Shown: positions 2,712 through 54,641 of the stretch, piece by piece
Position numbering within the stretch: position 1 is the stretch's first letter
Layout: every line of letters starts with the position of its first letter
Source of the DNA: Candidatus Omnitrophota bacterium
Lineage (GTDB): Bacteria > Omnitrophota > Gorgyraeia > JAHJTE01
Reading direction: 5' to 3'
Assembly: GCA_018830005.1 (NCBI GenBank)
Contig: JAHJTE010000002.1
Location: 73,517-137,516 of the forward strand
DNA: 64,000 nt
Position numbers and translations under genes: made by a program
Notes under the pieces: generated by a model
What the model saw: the letters and a program-made list of their open reading frames with translations, nothing else
What the model was told of the DNA's origin: nothing
The model's database searches: none

Positions 2712-3683
2712 ATGCTTAAGTCATCCTATTTAGAATTATACCAAACAAACTCTCAAGCCTTCCAGGCCAAGGTAGAGAAGGCCTACAAAACCCTAGAATC
2801 CTGCACCCTATGTCCCCATAACTGTAAGGTCAACCGGTTGGAGGGACAGATTGGAACGTGTAAGACAGGAGCAAAGGCTGAGGTTTACAGCTTCATGGCA
2901 CATCATGGTGAAGAGCCACCAATTTCAGGATCCAGGGGCTCTGGAACAATATTCTTTTCAAACTGCAATCTCCATTGCTGTTATTGTCAAAATTATGAAT
3001 TTAGTCAGATGGGAGGAGGCCGCGAAGTTGAGCCTGAAGAACTGGCAAAGATAATGTTAGAGCTTCAAACTAGAGGTTGTCACAATATAAATTTTGTTAG
3101 CCCAACGCATGTTGCGAGCCAAATTCTGCAAGGAATTTGGCGAGCAATACCCATGGGTTTAGAGATCCCGTTGGTTTACAATACTGGTGGTTATGACAAT
3201 GTTGAAATCTTGAAGCTTTTTGATGGGATTATAGATATTTACCTACCTGATATGCGCTATAATGATGCTGAGATTGCGCTAAAATTATCAGGTGCTAAGG
3301 AATACCCTAAATACAACAGACTTGCCATAAAAGAAATGTGGAGACAAGTCCCAAAGGCCGAATTTGACCAAAATAAGGTCATTTTAAGAGGTATGATTAT
3401 AAGACATTTAGTGCTTCCAAATGGCCTTTCTGGGACCTCCGGAATCATGAAGTTTCTAGCAAATGAAGTGTCTAAAGAAGTCCATGTAGCTCTCATGAGC
3501 CAGTATTTTCCCTGTTTTAAGGCCTCTAAGGAGCCCAAATTGGCACGAAGAATCACTCTCCAGGAGTATGAGTCAGCGAAAGGGGAGATGTCTAAAAATG
3601 GGCTTAAAAACGGCTGGTTCCAAGATGAGCATGGCTTGGATAGATTCCAAGGTATCAATATCAAACCCAATATCACTCCGTAA
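2712..3683 (+). CDS. Radical SAM protein, PflX/COG1313-like
   Basis: CX3CX2C motif CNLHCCYC; additional N-terminal Cys cluster CTLCPHNC...C. Confidence 0.6.
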   Translation: MLKSSYLELYQTNSQAFQAKVEKAYKTLESCTLCPHNCKVNRLEGQIGTCKTGAKAEVYSFMAHHGEEPPISGSRGSGTIFFSNCNLHCCYCQNYEFSQMGGGREVEPEELAKIMLELQTRGCHNINFVSPTHVASQILQGIWRAIPMGLEIPLVYNTGGYDNVEILKLFDGIIDIYLPDMRYNDAEIALKLSGAKEYPKYNRLAIKEMWRQVPKAEFDQNKVILRGMIIRHLVLPNGLSGTSGIMKFLANEVSKEVHVALMSQYFPCFKASKEPKLARRITLQEYESAKGEMSKNGLKNGWFQDEHGLDRFQGINIKPNITP

Positions 3684-42259: not shown

Positions 42260-43066
42260 TCAACGTCCTTTTATTAAGCTGAGTACGTTTTCCTTTGTGA
42301 AAATATCCATATCAGAAGGATTTTCCAGAAAATTCTCTACATCCTGCCTTACCTTCTGCCAATCTGTTGTTTTAACAACCTCAAAGATAAAATCCTGCCA
42401 GGTATTCTCTGATGGCATTTCCTTCTTCCACCCAGTTTGCTTAAGGGCGTTTTGTAAGAGGGTAATATTGGGCGAGATATCTCTCCAGCGCGAAAGATAC
42501 CATCCCAGGTCAAAAAAATCTCTGCCCTTGGTATATTTCCTGCTCAACAGTGCACTAAACTTACCGGCAAAAAGCGAAGAAACATCATAGGATAAAAAAG
42601 AAATTGGGAAATACTTATTAACGATATCTGTCTTTAATACTGCTCCTTTTGGCGGATTTGTATCAATCTCAAGCTTTACTGAAAACTTTTGCTCTTTATA
42701 AGGAGAAATTCCAGCCTCATGCATTAATCTCTCGAACTTAACCATTGCATTTTGAACAGTTTTCTCATGTTTATAGGAAATAGAAATATCGTAACCAGCC
42801 AGTTTTAATTCCTGCTTTATTTTCGCCACCAGTTCAACAAACTCATACTCCTTTTCTCTTGTCAGAGAAAAATCTAAGTCTTCTGAGAAGCGTGGCAGAT
42901 TATATAGAAAGCGTAATGCCGTACCGCCTAAAAATGCGGTAGAACGAAATACCCCTTCATCATGCATAATCCTTAAGATATATGCCTGCAGGTATTCACG
43001 CATAATATTCAATTTTGCGTTAAAACCATTCTTTGCCCCTACTAATTCTAAGCAGTAATCCTTCAC
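42260..43066 (-). CDS. AbiEii-family nucleotidyltransferase toxin (type IV TA)
   Basis: STAFLGGTALRFLYNLPRFSEDLDFSL signature. Confidence 0.75.
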   Translation of the reverse strand: MKDYCLELVGAKNGFNAKLNIMREYLQAYILRIMHDEGVFRSTAFLGGTALRFLYNLPRFSEDLDFSLTREKEYEFVELVAKIKQELKLAGYDISISYKHEKTVQNAMVKFERLMHEAGISPYKEQKFSVKLEIDTNPPKGAVLKTDIVNKYFPISFLSYDVSSLFAGKFSALLSRKYTKGRDFFDLGWYLSRWRDISPNITLLQNALKQTGWKKEMPSENTWQDFIFEVVKTTDWQKVRQDVENFLENPSDMDIFTKENVLSLIKGR

Positions 43067-43701
43067 AACACCTTTTCTCCCTTCTTGCTAGCGACCCTAT
43101 ATTCCTTGATTGCCTTGGCTACCTTTAACATCTTTGGTTTCTTAAATCGCTGCGCATATTCCAATAGTTTCTTAACATTTACTTTCTCTAGATTCTGAAG
43201 CCTTAATCCCTTTAGATAATCTAAAGAGACCTTTAGTCTCTTTACATAGAAAAAATCAAGAAGCGCTTTCTCGCAAGATGCAATAAAGGCTGTCTGTTTA
43301 TTAACAGTAACGGAGCTATAGCCCCAAAAAAGAGACTCTTTAATATGCCTATAATCAAAAATCCCTGCTTTGGATACAAACCTTGCTTCTCTTTTTGTAG
43401 TAACTGATGTAAATACAGTTGTTGCCTCAGGAATCAAATTATGGTACTCAAATGCTTTTTCTAAACTAATATATGAAGGTGTTTTTAAAACAGCAGCCAG
43501 ATAAGGTTCGTAAACCTCGATCTTGCGATACGGCTCTGCCAATAAATACATACCTTTTTTAAGCTGGATAATCTTGCCTGCCTTTTTCCAACGACTAATT
43601 TGCACTTCGACCAAAGCAGGGTTAGATACGCCTGCAAGCAAAGCTTCGGGATTAATTACTGGTAATTTACTTGTAATCTTTAAGAATTCTTCCCAATCCA
43701 T
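43063..43701 (-). CDS. AbiEi-family antitoxin/transcriptional regulator
   Basis: N-terminal AbiEi_4-like segment; 4-nt overlap with AbiEii gene. Confidence 0.7.
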   Translation of the reverse strand: MDWEEFLKITSKLPVINPEALLAGVSNPALVEVQISRWKKAGKIIQLKKGMYLLAEPYRKIEVYEPYLAAVLKTPSYISLEKAFEYHNLIPEATTVFTSVTTKREARFVSKAGIFDYRHIKESLFWGYSSVTVNKQTAFIASCEKALLDFFYVKRLKVSLDYLKGLRLQNLEKVNVKKLLEYAQRFKKPKMLKVAKAIKEYRVASKKGEKVL

Positions 43702-45212: not shown

Positions 45213-46602
45213 GGATTGGCTTATCAAATACTGCCTTTGCTGCATCAACAGCAAGTTCGGAGAGTGTTGGGTGGGCATGAACGGTATGGGCAATATCCTG
45301 AACGCGTAAATTATTACTTTTAGCTACTACAAACTCATGTATTAGCTCACTTGCCTCATGGCCTGCAATATGTACTCCCAGGATTTTACCGCTTCTTTTC
45401 TCAGCGATGATCTTGATAAAGCCGTCTTGCTTATGTAAAAGAATGGCCTTTCCGCAAGACCTATAAAAATGCTTAACTACTACAATATCTAGCCCTTTAT
45501 CCCCTGCATTCTTTTCAGTCAAACCAACGCTTGCTGCCTGAAACTCTGAATATACAGCAGACGGTATGGATGAATAATCAATCGGCTTAGGCCTTTTTCC
45601 TGAAATCACATCAGCTGCCAGGATGCCTTCAGCTGATGCCACGTGGGCTAACATAGGAGAGTTTATGCAATCACCAATAGCATAGATATTCTTTATATTG
45701 GTCTGCATTTTTTCATTTACAACAATGCAGCCTTTTTCCAGCAAAACTGCTATTTTCTCCAAACCAAGGCTTTCAGTGTTGGGTGAACGGCCTACACAAA
45801 GAAGCACGTACTCAAACTCCTTATTAATTACCCCGTTAGCAGTCTTGATCTGGGCAATAGAAGAATGGGTTTTTCTCTCTAAGTTAACTACAGAACTCTC
45901 AAGTAAAATTTCAATCCCTGTTCTTTTGAGGTATTTGCTAATTTCCTGGGCAATATCAATATCCTCAAGCGGTAACAACTGGCCTGTAAGCTCAACTATG
46001 CACACCTCAGAGCCTAGGCTTTTAAATAATGAGCCGAATTCTACTCCTATAGCACCGCCGCCAATAACAAGTAGACTCTTTGGTATTTCCTTGAGCCTAA
46101 ATACACCCTCACTTGTAATTACATTTTTATCATCTGGCTCAAGACCAGAGAATACTTTCGGCCGCGAACCTGTGGCAATAATAAAGTTGGAGGCATTGAC
46201 CTCTGTCTCATTGTCGCCACTTATAACCAAAACAGATGTCTTGGAGGAAAAGCGTGCTTGGCCAATAATCAAATCAATATTATTCTTTTTGAATAAATAC
46301 TCAATTCCGCTGCGAAGCTGAGCAGAACTTGATAGAGCGCAAGAGACTAGCCTAGAAAAATCCACCTCTTTAGCTTCCAGGTCTATACCAGCCTTGGCTG
46401 CTTCCTTTGGAATATCATAAAGGTGAGCACTGTTTAATAAGGCCTTGGTGGGAATACAGCCTTCGTTCAAACACACTCCACCTAAGTGTTCCTTGGCATT
46501 CTCTATAACACATACAGATTTTCCTAATTGGGCCAGCCTTATAGCTGCAACATAACCGCCAGGTCCAGCTCCAATTACAACAACATCATATGTCTTTGGC
46601 AT
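45205..46602 (-). CDS. lpd: Dihydrolipoyl dehydrogenase (start trimmed to MPKTYDVVV)
   Basis: GAGPGG FAD motif; redox disulfide GGVCLNEGCIPTK; C-terminal HAHPTLSE. Confidence 0.9.
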   Translation of the reverse strand: MPKTYDVVVIGAGPGGYVAAIRLAQLGKSVCVIENAKEHLGGVCLNEGCIPTKALLNSAHLYDIPKEAAKAGIDLEAKEVDFSRLVSCALSSSAQLRSGIEYLFKKNNIDLIIGQARFSSKTSVLVISGDNETEVNASNFIIATGSRPKVFSGLEPDDKNVITSEGVFRLKEIPKSLLVIGGGAIGVEFGSLFKSLGSEVCIVELTGQLLPLEDIDIAQEISKYLKRTGIEILLESSVVNLERKTHSSIAQIKTANGVINKEFEYVLLCVGRSPNTESLGLEKIAVLLEKGCIVVNEKMQTNIKNIYAIGDCINSPMLAHVASAEGILAADVISGKRPKPIDYSSIPSAVYSEFQAASVGLTEKNAGDKGLDIVVVKHFYRSCGKAILLHKQDGFIKIIAEKRSGKILGVHIAGHEASELIHEFVVAKSNNLRVQDIAHTVHAHPTLSELAVDAAKAVFDKPIHG

Positions 46603-46673
46603 ATTTAACTCCAATCTTTCCCAGTTAAACCTATTGCTTATTCTACCATTTACAGAAAAAAATGGCAATACAC

Positions 46674-46702
46674 AAAAAAAGGCGCCCCTTTTTAGGGACG
46701 CC
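46674..46702 (-). terminator. Rho-independent terminator (minus strand)
   Basis: Minus strand GGCGUCCC-UAAAAA-GGGGCGCC (8-bp stem incl. one G.U) followed by UUUUUUU. Confidence 0.65.
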
Positions 46703-46719
46703 TGTATAATATTCCTGAG

Positions 46720-46917
46720 CCGACAAAGGTTAACTTACCTTACCTCTCTCTTCGGTAACCCAACCACCATACTATGGACCTTCCCCCACTAAAAGTGAGG
46801 TTTCGGGTCGCTATAGCTATAGGTTTGCGGCTTTGTCCTGAACGAATTGCTCAGGATCCCTCAAGGAAATAATCCCTGAAAGATGTCCCTAGATTTCTCT
46901 AGGTTTACCCTTATCGG
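46720..46917 (-). ncRNA. Candidate structured RNA (about 200 nt, GC-enriched; riboswitch-like leader of lpd-lipA or 6S-like sRNA)
   Basis: No ORF in any frame; long-range 18-bp helix (16 pairs incl. 2 G.U) between 46900-46917 and 46720-46737; internal hairpins CCUCAC-UUUUA-GUGGGG, CCUAG-AGAAAU-CUAGG, AAGGU-AAGUUA-ACCUU; terminator immediately 3'. Confidence 0.35.
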
Positions 46918-46976
46918 CTTAAATAAAAGAACACTTAACGTAAAGTATACCCTATAGATAAGGAAAATTCAAGATC

Positions 46977-47159
46977 CTATACCTCAGAATCCTTTATGAG
47001 GCGACGATAATATTCCAGGCATTTCTTACAAGTTGGATTCTTCTCGTGCCACTCAGGGTGATCCTTCAGTATCAGATTCATCAAGTATTCTTCTGCCTTA
47101 ATATGAGAAATAGCAGCAACCTCATCAATCTCACGTTGGCAAATTTGGCATCTGTACAT
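46977..47159 (-). CDS. Small C4 zinc-ribbon protein
   Basis: CQICQ...CKKC pairs in 60 aa. Confidence 0.3.
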   Translation of the reverse strand: MYRCQICQREIDEVAAISHIKAEEYLMNLILKDHPEWHEKNPTCKKCLEYYRRLIKDSEV

Positions 47160-47227
47160 AAGTTAGCATCCTTTTTTTGTTAATACTAACATAAAAAGCA
47201 TGCTATGTCAACGTGATATGATCTATA

Positions 47228-48856
47228 TTAAATATATTTATTCTTATTAATCAAACTAACGAAAACAGGTACAATCTTAGGGTCAAATTGCAAACCAGCA
47301 TTAACCCTCAGTTCCTTAATTGCATCCTTGACTGTCATTTTCTTCAATCTGTATGGCCTGTCACTTGTCATCGCATCAAAGGAATCTGCACAGGCAAGAA
47401 TCCTGGCACTTAAGGGTATTTCAGTTTCGGCAATGCGATCAGGATAACCATCGCCATCAAAGCGCTCATGATGATTCCTAACTAAAGGTATGCATTGTTT
47501 CATAAATTTAAGCGGTTGGAGTACTTTTGCGCCCTTAATCGGATGAAGCTCGATAATCGAGCGCTCAACTGCAGTCAATCTTCCTGGTTTATTCAAAATC
47601 AAATCTGATATTCCTACCTTTCCAACATCATGAACAGTGCCGCCATAATGGATTATCCTAAGCATATTATCAGGTAGTTTTAACTTGCGAGCAATATCCA
47701 ATGCATACATTGTAACCCGCTCTGAATGACCTCTTGTATAAGGGTCTCTGGCTTCCATTGCCAAAACCAATGCCCTCAATGTACTGAAATAGTTCTTATG
47801 CACATCATCATAGTTTTTATTTTCCTGAATGGCGACAGCAATCTGATTGGAAAATGCCTTAATCAATTCAATCTCTTCATCACTAAACTGCTTCACATGG
47901 CGATAAAACACGCTAAATACAGCAAGATTTTGCTGTTTGAAAGCTGCTGGAACAACAAGTGCTGAACGCAGATGCTCCTCTTTAGCCTTATCAGGATACA
48001 AGACGCGATCATCATGCTGCATGTCATTGCAAATAAAGACCTTACCACTTGCTGCTGCCCTACCCTCTATACCTTCACCTATCTTAAGAGGAGTCTCCAT
48101 AAGCATGTTTTTACCCAAACCAATGGCAGTCTTTGGAACAAGCATTCTAGACTCATTATCTACATAACGAACTGAAGCAGCATCAGCATGCAATAAGTCT
48201 TTGGCTAATTTTGCAATCAACGAAACAGCCTTTGCAGTATCTCCGTTTGAACAAACTAACTTATTGGCAATAACTAAATCATGCAACTCTTCCTGTTTAT
48301 AGTTTAATCTCTTCAGCAATGTCCTGTATCTTTTATTCAAGGTATCGTTGCCACTAGACACCTTCTTGCTAACAGAACGCATGCGCTTAATCTCAACATT
48401 AAGTTTTTTATTTGAACTCTTAAGTTTACCACAAATACTTTTAAGACTGGTAATCTTACTAGAGTGTTGCTTGCTGAGTCTAACCCGATCAGTGACCTCG
48501 TAAACTAACTCTAATACTTGAATAACATTACCCTTTTTATCTTTAATAGGATTAGCAATAACTTGAAATAATCCTTTCCTGCCATCCTCCAAGATTCCAG
48601 GACGTAATGCCTTATATGTCTTGCCAGTTTTAAATGATCTTCTACATGGACATCCCACACAGATATCATTTCTTCCTTCGTATATTTTATAACAATGTTT
48701 ACCTATGATATTCCTTGTTTTTGCAAACCATTTAATATGCGTAGCATTAACCCAAACAATACGAAAGTCGCGGTCAATTAGTGAAAAACCAGCCGCGACT
48801 TCATCTACGACATGCAATCTTTTAATTAAACTTTTTAGTTGATTTACCTTTAGCAT
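47228..48856 (-). CDS. PAS (4-Cys) - GAF - HD-GYP c-di-GMP phosphodiesterase
   Basis: HD-GYP motifs HDVGK and HHERFDGDGYP; central GAF; N-terminal PAS with C-x8-C-x2-C-x-C cluster. Confidence 0.8.
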   Translation of the reverse strand: MLKVNQLKSLIKRLHVVDEVAAGFSLIDRDFRIVWVNATHIKWFAKTRNIIGKHCYKIYEGRNDICVGCPCRRSFKTGKTYKALRPGILEDGRKGLFQVIANPIKDKKGNVIQVLELVYEVTDRVRLSKQHSSKITSLKSICGKLKSSNKKLNVEIKRMRSVSKKVSSGNDTLNKRYRTLLKRLNYKQEELHDLVIANKLVCSNGDTAKAVSLIAKLAKDLLHADAASVRYVDNESRMLVPKTAIGLGKNMLMETPLKIGEGIEGRAAASGKVFICNDMQHDDRVLYPDKAKEEHLRSALVVPAAFKQQNLAVFSVFYRHVKQFSDEEIELIKAFSNQIAVAIQENKNYDDVHKNYFSTLRALVLAMEARDPYTRGHSERVTMYALDIARKLKLPDNMLRIIHYGGTVHDVGKVGISDLILNKPGRLTAVERSIIELHPIKGAKVLQPLKFMKQCIPLVRNHHERFDGDGYPDRIAETEIPLSARILACADSFDAMTSDRPYRLKKMTVKDAIKELRVNAGLQFDPKIVPVFVSLINKNKYI

Positions 48857-54550: not shown

Positions 54551-54626
54551 TTATAGATTATGCGCCTGGGTGGATTCGAACCACCCCAAGACGGGCCTTA
54601 GGAGAGCCCCGCTCTATCCAAATGAG
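54551..54626 (-). tRNA. tRNA-Arg (anticodon CCU)
   Basis: Minus strand GCGCCUG-UA-GCUC...GAGC-G-GGGCU-CUCCUAA-GGCCC-(GUCUUGG)-GGUGG-UUCGAAU-CCACC-CAGGCGC-A; cloverleaf with UUCGAAU T-loop; CCA not encoded; apparent 7-nt variable region. Confidence 0.8.
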
Positions 54627-54641
54627 CTACAGGCGCTTTTT

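Follow-up and report, generated by a model that had tools for sequence, protein, structure and literature searches.

The nearest functional precedent for the RNA described here is merRNA of Bdellovibrio bacteriovorus, an RNA of the c-di-GMP-I class (GEMM-I, Rfam family RF01051) that has no regulated open reading frame (ORF) and has been proposed to act as a store or sponge for cyclic diguanylate (c-di-GMP), a second messenger (PMC3627812). The other close system is Bc1 of the Bacillus cereus group, in which a type-I GEMM-I aptamer in the 5′ untranslated region (UTR) of mcpE is followed, with no intervening promoter, by a long 3′ region whose intrinsic terminators rearrange with the ligand (PMC11218506). 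Here we analyse a 64,000-nucleotide (nt) stretch of Candidatus Omnitrophota bacterium DNA (contig JAHJTE010000002.1, positions 73,517 to 137,516; hereafter the window), which carries, just 5′ of the genes lpd and lipA, a structured RNA whose core, to judge from sequence and predicted fold, is homologous to the GEMM-I aptamer. Like merRNA, the window RNA would place such an aptamer on a non-coding RNA without a conserved downstream ORF under its control; the two are compared by the shared aptamer alone, and merRNA differs in being 445 nt long, reported only in Bdellovibrio and defined by massive expression in the attack phase. With Bc1 the window RNA shares the type-I aptamer and a long 3′ region with an intrinsic terminator, but neither the promoter-free link to a downstream gene nor ligand-dependent terminator rearrangement is evident in it.

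All coordinates are those of the window, and the RNA and lpd both lie on its minus strand. An earlier note on this DNA, made from the letters alone, had picked out an ORF-free, GC-rich structured stretch at this site, and that description held. Between a 60-amino-acid ORF (46977–47159, minus strand) and the lpd start codon (ATG at 46602, preceded by GGAG), no minus-strand ORF of at least 40 amino acids was found. The structured body of the RNA, a multi-helix fold of 200 nt (46719–46918, minus strand), has a GC content of 0.47 against a window mean of 0.377 (standard deviation 0.046), a value reached by 1% of 200-nt segments. The minimum free energy (MFE) of 46670–46980 is −113.1 kcal/mol, compared with −83.4 ± 4.7 kcal/mol for 100 dinucleotide shuffles (z = −6.4), none of which matched it, and the corresponding fold consists of a long-range closing helix, several internal hairpins and a terminal hairpin.

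At Rfam gathering thresholds no family matched in the RNA region; the only match at that level in the window was a tRNA at 54561–54636 (minus strand, 53.3 bits). When the 701 nt from 46550 to 47250 were searched by expectation value (E) instead, RF01051 was the top match (27.8 bits, E 0.0024), with an alignment that spans the whole model (positions 1–87) and contains insertions of 53 and 37 nt. All nine homologues introduced below match the clan CL00126 at 24–31 bits, likewise under the gathering score. This shortfall coincides with the large insertions, and insertion-bearing relatives with a short P3 reach 38–57 bits. As in type-I GEMM-I aptamers, P2 is capped by a GNRA loop and P3 contains a matching receptor (CCUAUAG/UAUGG, one base more than CCUAAG); the GAAA loop of P2 was found in six sequences collected through Lpd, by a search that did not require it. 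Three bases of the Vc2 aptamer, G20, A47 and C92, have been named as likely important for c-di-GMP binding (PMC11218506), and their equivalents, mapped through the Rfam alignment, are G46909, A46834 and C46755, each invariant in ten of ten family members. The homology is also reciprocal, because a covariance model built without Rfam sequences (R1; six family members, a curated GEMM-I-like structure, 200 positions and 61 pairs) retrieves both GEMM-I RNAs that pass the Rfam threshold (for example L137, at 78.5 bits, and L136, at 51.4 bits) and canonical, insertion-free GEMM-I. The same model finds one copy of the RNA in the 64-kb window. Together, these comparisons show, at the level of sequence and modelled structure, that the core of the window RNA is homologous to the c-di-GMP-I aptamer, with its architecture and three ligand-contacting bases conserved, and we infer that the RNA binds c-di-GMP. 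Because the core features are present while the Rfam score and a recognizable expression platform are lacking, we call it an expanded variant rather than a plain member: on these comparisons it is a structurally enlarged GEMM-I relative, of an RNA class that is already known. The novel riboswitch class suggested by the earlier note is not supported, since the class is known and RF01051 is the top match over its full model length.

Read from its 5′ end, the RNA begins with the 5′ strand of P1 (GCCGAUAAG, 46910–46918), which pairs with 46719–46727 and is paired in 100% of alignment cells across ten sequences. The junction GGUAAA follows (46904–46909); according to the Rfam alignment it holds the G20 equivalent, the equivalents of G21 and U22, which pair with those of C46 and A45, and an AAA bulge. 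P2 and its 3′ bulge occupy 46885–46903, where a hairpin (46888–46903; CCUAGA-GAAA-UCUAGG, with a GAAA tetraloop) has compensatory changes in three of its six pairs and is followed by a GAC bulge. Next come two inserted hairpins: Pa (46856–46884), a 12-bp stem outside the Rfam consensus, with compensatory changes in 11 of 12 pairs among ten sequences and in 12 of 12 among thirty, and Pb (46837–46855), 7 bp in the window, with such changes in 11 of 11 model pairs. The stretch ACAA (46833–46836) supplies the A45 and C46 equivalents, partners of U22 and G21, and those of A47 and A48, and the consensus 2-bp junction helix GC/GC accordingly reads GU/AC in the window RNA. P3 (46757–46832), delimited by the Rfam alignment, RNAalifold and covariation, is built of basal helices (AGCC/GGUU, CAA/UUG and ACC/GGU), the tetraloop-receptor-like CCUAUAG...UAUGG, and a distal extension comprising a conserved internal loop, CCCGAAA/GGAAGG, and a hairpin, CCUCAC/GUGGGG. 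At the 3′ end of the GEMM-I core comes its conserved tail, ACCGAAG (46750–46756), which contains the C92 equivalent and whose CC is invariant in ten of ten members. A linker of variable length and sequence (46731–46749) then leads, through a small hairpin (P4) in most homologues, to ACC and the 3′ strand of P1 (UUUGUCGGC; together 46719–46730), and the CC of this element can lengthen P1 by pairing with G20 and G21. In reading order, the 5′ part is thus AAGG / GU / AAA, CCUAGA-GAAA-UCUAGG / GAC, the 48-nt insert and AC / AA, and the 3′ part is AGCC-G-CAAACC-UAUAG-CUAU...AUAG-UAU-GGU-GG-UUGGGUU, then ACCGAAG. The full closing helix joins GCCGAUAAGGGU to ACCUUUGUCGGC (46918–46907 with 46730–46719), and 9–12 bp of it are supported by homologues. 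Of the 18-bp long-range helix drawn in the earlier note, this is the part that stands; the other bases (AAACCUA) are those of the GEMM-I junction and of hairpin P2. The internal hairpins listed there are present in the MFE fold, but AAGGU/ACCUU is not conserved, and neither is the alternative pairing CCUGAGC/GCUCAGG. The loop of the P3 extension, CCCGAAA opposite GGAAGG, is asymmetric, is conserved in the close clade and has no counterpart in the GEMM-I consensus; a role in tertiary contacts or in protein binding is conceivable.

Compared with GEMM-I RNAs of the tetraloop/receptor type, the window RNA shares the three-helix core of P1, P2 and P3, the AAGG-N-AAACC junction, a 6-bp P2 with a GAAA cap, the GAC bulge, the 2-bp helix (G21-C46 and N22-N45) followed by AAA, the P3 receptor CCUA(U)AG/UAUGG, the GGGUUACCGAA tail and the equivalents of G20, A47 and C92. 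To this core are added four lineage-specific elements, all held by compensatory base changes: the two hairpins Pa and Pb (48 nt) between GGGAC and ACAAAGCC, that is, between the GAC bulge and the 2-bp helix; a longer P3, with a tip of about 37 nt against about 4 nt in GEMM-I; the linker hairpin P4 between the CCGAAG tail and the 3′ strand of P1; and a long closing P1, an invariant helix of 9–12 bp whose top is able to mask G20 and G21. A further difference is that no ligand-responsive expression platform is recognizable and that the downstream gene has its own promoter. The two-hairpin insertion is not unique to this locus, because it is also found, at 43–65 nt, between GGGAC and GCAAAGCC and with compensatory changes, in GEMM-I RNAs that score above the Rfam gathering level (for example L136, L137, L092, L118 and L105). 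These RNAs differ from the window RNA in their ordinary short P3 and in lacking its invariant GCCGAUAA...UUAUCGGC closing helix. In L118, L129, L136 and L128 the next ORF resembles, by eye, a signal-peptide protein, and so insertion-bearing GEMM-I RNAs appear to behave as ordinary cis riboswitches. What defines the subfamily of the window RNA is therefore a combination: the insertion, a long P3, the linker hairpin, a long P1 that does not vary and signals for autonomous transcription. In the limited collection of literature that we searched, neither a c-di-GMP riboswitch from Omnitrophota nor the two-hairpin insertion nor the present variant was described.

The subfamily comprises ten distinct members of 195–246 nt, namely the window RNA and nine homologues on Candidatus Omnitrophota-type metagenome contigs. 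Four of the homologues (L097, L104, L142 and L144), which share the special features of the window RNA, were found by scanning metagenomes for the pattern of a GEMM-I P2 hairpin, 34–64 nt and RCAAARCC. Among the 80 matches listed, at least about 25 are distinct, genuine GEMM-I RNAs with the two-hairpin insertion at exactly the same site, on contigs of widely different GC content. Folded singly, each of the ten members forms P1, P2 (GAAA), Pa and Pb, and an intergenic alignment of the relatives shows an invariant core, a conserved promoter, variable hairpins, sequence-diverse terminators and a second promoter beyond the terminator. For six members RNAalifold predicted 65 pairs, 25 of them with compensatory changes. 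Because the variable hairpins of distant members came out misaligned with MAFFT alone, covariance-model alignments were used for the larger sets. In the ten-member alignment 96.8% of cells are paired (junction helix 100%, P2 98%, P3 helices 95–100%) and 37 of the 61 pairs changed on both sides; none of 500 shuffles scored as high, and partners slid by 1–3 columns pair in at most 47% of cells. At the junction pair 22-45, the ten members have CG four times, UA four times and UG twice. For 30 insertion-bearing GEMM-I RNAs, pairing holds in 93.5% of cells and both partners have changed in 49 of 61 pairs, a level that none of 500 shuffles reached. These alignments were fitted to the model and are biased towards its structure, yet the slid controls and the independent RNAalifold result indicate that the covariation signal is real. 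The RNA element is real and conserved.

P1 deserves separate treatment. Its 9-bp helix, GCCGAUAA(A/G) with UU(U)(A/G)UCGGC, is nearly invariant in sequence, and its 3′ strand is separated from the CCGAAG tail by the variable linker, usually with the small hairpin. Directly 5′ of that strand stands a conserved CC that can pair with G20 in ten of ten members and with G21 in nine of ten; the position beside it can pair with N22 in eight of ten. All ten members can also form the GEMM-I pairs that compete with these, G21-C46 and N22-N45. Both pairings are compatible with the aligned sequences and are mutually exclusive, and pairing with the CC would mask a ligand-contacting base. In six of the ten members (L083, L084, L085, L086, L097 and L142) a U run follows straight after the 3′ strand of P1 (for example, CGGCUUUUUU), making P1 plus U tract a candidate first stop or pause site; L097 is without a separate simple terminator hairpin. 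At the second GEMM-I match of L099 (2921–3032, minus strand), a canonical one, inspection by eye showed that 11 positions of the 5′ flank UUCGAUAAAGG are complementary to CCUUUGUCGAA, which lies some 70 nt downstream, immediately ahead of an AAGGAG ribosome-binding site. Competitor or P1-like strands at a distance may be a wider theme of GEMM-I expression platforms.

A promoter of the unit's own stands just 5′ of P1, and a strong terminator follows P1 after 15 nt. The promoter scan placed a sigma-70-like promoter (TTGAAT, a 17-nt spacer and TATACT; 46944–46972, minus strand) with an expected start near 46937, and a counterpart is present in ten of ten members, its −10 element ending 7–25 nt before P1. 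Only one terminator was found by the scan, an intrinsic one (AGGCGUCCCU-AAAA-AGGGGCGCCU, then UUUUUU; 46671–46703, minus strand) whose 10-bp stem (46703–46680) includes seven G-C pairs and closes a loop of 4 nt. About 70 nt separate the end of the terminator from the lpd ATG, as the earlier note had described, and an aptamer-type RNA followed by a terminator, also proposed there, is conserved in the family: a terminator hairpin of differing sequence stands in the same place, shortly after P1, in nine of ten members. Beyond the terminator the window has a second promoter, that of lpd (TTGCCA, a 17-nt spacer and TG-n-TAGAAT; 46640–46668, minus strand; 10 of 12 consensus matches and the TG), and nine of ten members likewise have a promoter, frequently one of the extended −10 type, in the interval from terminator to next gene (the exception is L097).

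On balance we favour the reading that the element is a free-standing c-di-GMP-binding small RNA rather than a leader that gates lpd-lipA. The RNA would be made as a discrete transcript of about 250–265 nt that acts on its own, either as a buffer or sponge for c-di-GMP or as a ligand-dependent trans-acting RNA. This stand-alone RNA is preferred to a classical attenuator because of its transcription signals, an antiterminator that does not exceed chance, varied neighbours and the existence of lpd loci without the RNA. The fallback that the earlier note had allowed, an independent small RNA, fits the predicted promoter and terminator signals.

The strongest rival, which we nonetheless hold to be rather unlikely, is a classical cis-acting c-di-GMP-I riboswitch, in which the ligand would alter stopping at 46680–46703 and read-through would add a c-di-GMP-dependent part to lpd-lipA expression on top of that from the lpd promoter. 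Aptamer and terminator do lie on the same strand as lpd and 5′ of it in seven related contigs, and Bc1 is a documented c-di-GMP-I riboswitch whose long expression platform includes two terminators (PMC11218506). At this locus, though, the 3′ strand of P1 and the terminator do not overlap, being separated by the 15-nt spacer, and when the terminator arms were compared with the RNA body the best duplexes were no better than those of shuffles, at sites that differ between homologues. The antiterminator that the earlier note had proposed (AGGGAC with GUCCCU) is matched by 90 of 200 shuffles, and antiterminator or anti-antiterminator pairing is neither conserved nor above chance. The strong, conserved promoter between terminator and gene in nine of ten members also speaks against this rival, as do downstream genes that are unrelated between lineages.

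Comparison of neighbourhoods bears on the same question. The window Lpd is 100% identical to a protein recorded at NCBI from a Candidatus Omnitrophota metagenome-assembled genome, and the corresponding ENA contig is k141_556995 of ERZ27247117. Contigs that encode Lpd at 63–81% identity have the order PAS-GAF-HD-GYP gene, 61-amino-acid ORF, RNA, lpd, lipA and nitroreductase gene, and in L084 a 23S_rRNA_IVP gene stands between the RNA and lpd. In the remoter members the setting changes: L104 has Band_7 genes upstream and genes for DPBB_1 (a secreted protein) and PilZ downstream, L142 has a PG_binding lipoprotein gene upstream and a GH1 gene downstream, and L097 has cas1-cas2 upstream. Searches with R1 near lpd found nothing in 80 loci of other phyla (Lpd relatives of at most 44% identity) and nothing in three distant Omnitrophota loci, where lpd starts less than 40 nt after the preceding gene. 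Since these 80 and 3 lpd loci are without the RNA, the lpd association is confined to one close clade. A functional link between the RNA and lpd, the control of lpd-lipA that the earlier note had favoured, is therefore not supported, in view of the separate lpd promoter, the varied downstream genes and the lpd loci without the RNA; the link is probably positional. In L142, the GH1 gene lies about 70 nt 3′ of the RNA and starts 8–10 nt after a TATAAT-like −10 element, without a Shine-Dalgarno sequence, which suggests a leaderless GH1 mRNA made from its own putative promoter. Small 23S_rRNA_IVP genes occur at varied intergenic sites of the syntenic lpd-lipA region (L084 2454–2810; L083 4467–4817; L086 4419–4790 and 6338–6703), and genes of this family are absent from the window.

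Several observations weigh against a free-standing c-di-GMP-binding RNA. The RF01051 score of 27.8 bits lies below the curated gathering score of 35, and the promoters are predictions, known as matches to consensus only. Wherever a downstream gene could be read, in three independent contexts that include L104 and L142, the RNA points the same way as that gene, and DPBB_1 and PilZ in L104 are characteristic of c-di-GMP regulons, as would suit a cis-acting riboswitch. A P1 of 9–12 bp that forms without ligand is unusual for GEMM-I, and ligand binding could have been lost. Finally, by nearest-neighbour energies, folds in which G20, A47 and C92 are free lie 3.7–9 kcal/mol above the MFE; the constraint freed these three bases only and did not enforce the junction pairs, making the figure a rough cost of opening the pocket. 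Set against this cost is a dissociation constant of about 1 nM, as quoted in PMC3627812. By our own arithmetic this corresponds to about 12–13 kcal/mol, which exceeds the opening cost, and the comparison suggests that the modelled RNA contains an internal switch. In such a switch the conserved CC would pair with G20 and G21 and mask the binding pocket, and binding of c-di-GMP would displace the CC strand, so that the RNA would switch within itself, with no need of the terminator.

The free-standing reading can be carried further, though we offer the extension tentatively: the window RNA might represent the founder of a family of free-standing, promoter-to-terminator c-di-GMP-binding small RNAs in Omnitrophota, each a GEMM-I aptamer enlarged to five helices or more, with its own competitor strand. 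In that case c-di-GMP might flip the internal switch and so open the linker to a partner, whether protein or RNA; alternatively, the RNA might do no more than buffer the messenger. If this were so, a riboswitch aptamer would have been re-used as a trans-acting sensor of a second messenger instead of a gene leader. Should the stand-alone reading itself be true, the RNA would be the second independent case, after merRNA of Bdellovibrio, of a c-di-GMP aptamer that is an RNA gene in its own right, with a concrete internal-competitor mechanism on offer. Irrespective of function, a curated-threshold Rfam scan misses here a conserved, enlarged branch of a very common second-messenger riboswitch class in a little-studied, uncultivated phylum, and a tempting but wrong annotation, that of a glycine- or lipoate-sensing leader of lpd-lipA, is removed.

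A role as a 3′-UTR element appears improbable. Here transcripts of the 60-amino-acid ORF, and perhaps of the HD-GYP gene, would end at the RNA terminator, and the c-di-GMP-bound aptamer would tune the stability of the hydrolase mRNA in a feedback loop. The idea draws on the terminator scan, which found none between the stop of the small ORF (46977) and the RNA, and on the PAS-GAF-HD-GYP protein encoded two genes upstream of the RNA (47228–48856, minus strand), which, with its HDVGK and HHERFDGDGYP motifs, is likely to be a c-di-GMP phosphodiesterase. The order HD-GYP, small ORF and RNA is kept in seven related contigs but not in the remoter family members: neither the HD-GYP gene nor the small ORF stands upstream in L104, L142 or L097, and the RNA has a conserved promoter of its own. 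The small ORF encodes two CxxC pairs (Cys4) and has no Pfam match. Its homologues form 215 clusters, of which all that name an organism are from Omnitrophota or Omnitrophica except for one given as 'bacterium', and in other Omnitrophota it sits in a different cluster, with GH57, a ParA/MipZ-like gene (with AMPK1_CBM), a MamF-like gene and small ORFs, and without the RNA. A link between the RNA and the Cys4 ORF was rejected on these grounds. Among the relatives of the window, the Cys4 ORF is 75–80% identical, more conserved than Lpd.

That the RNA belongs to a novel riboswitch class for glycine, lipoate or NAD(H), or is a 6S-like RNA that binds RNA polymerase, as the earlier note had variously proposed from a location upstream of lpd-lipA and from resemblances between short strings, has next to no probability: neither RF00504 (glycine) nor RF00013 (6S) appears in 46550–47250 even at E ≤ 10, where c-di-GMP-I matches instead, the predicted, covariation-supported fold is a multi-branched GEMM-I junction rather than the long, mostly double-stranded 6S rod and its open-promoter-like bubble in the centre, the 'glycine-like' strings belong to the GEMM-I core (ACCGAAG being the conserved 3′ tail of the c-di-GMP-I aptamer), and the lpd association is limited to one close clade.

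Other features were noted in passing. Among the metagenome matches, L100 and L143 have triple-tandem GEMM-I aptamers, and L141 (4136–4258 and 4400–4559), L094, L135 and L139 have tandem ones; the GCCGAU...AUCGGC closing helix of the window RNA recurs in the first L141 copy, which lacks the two-hairpin insertion. The match in L103 (about 3000–3400) is a chance one, in an array resembling clustered regularly interspaced short palindromic repeats (CRISPR-like), with a direct repeat of about 36 nt, ATCTACAAAAGTAGAAATCTTATATAACTTCTAAAC, and unique spacers. Elsewhere in the window, a gene for an AbiEii-family nucleotidyltransferase toxin (42260–43066, minus strand) overlaps by its start a 212-amino-acid ORF (43063–43701) that has no Pfam match; the two are probably a type IV toxin–antitoxin pair, and the same pair of genes occurs in L085.

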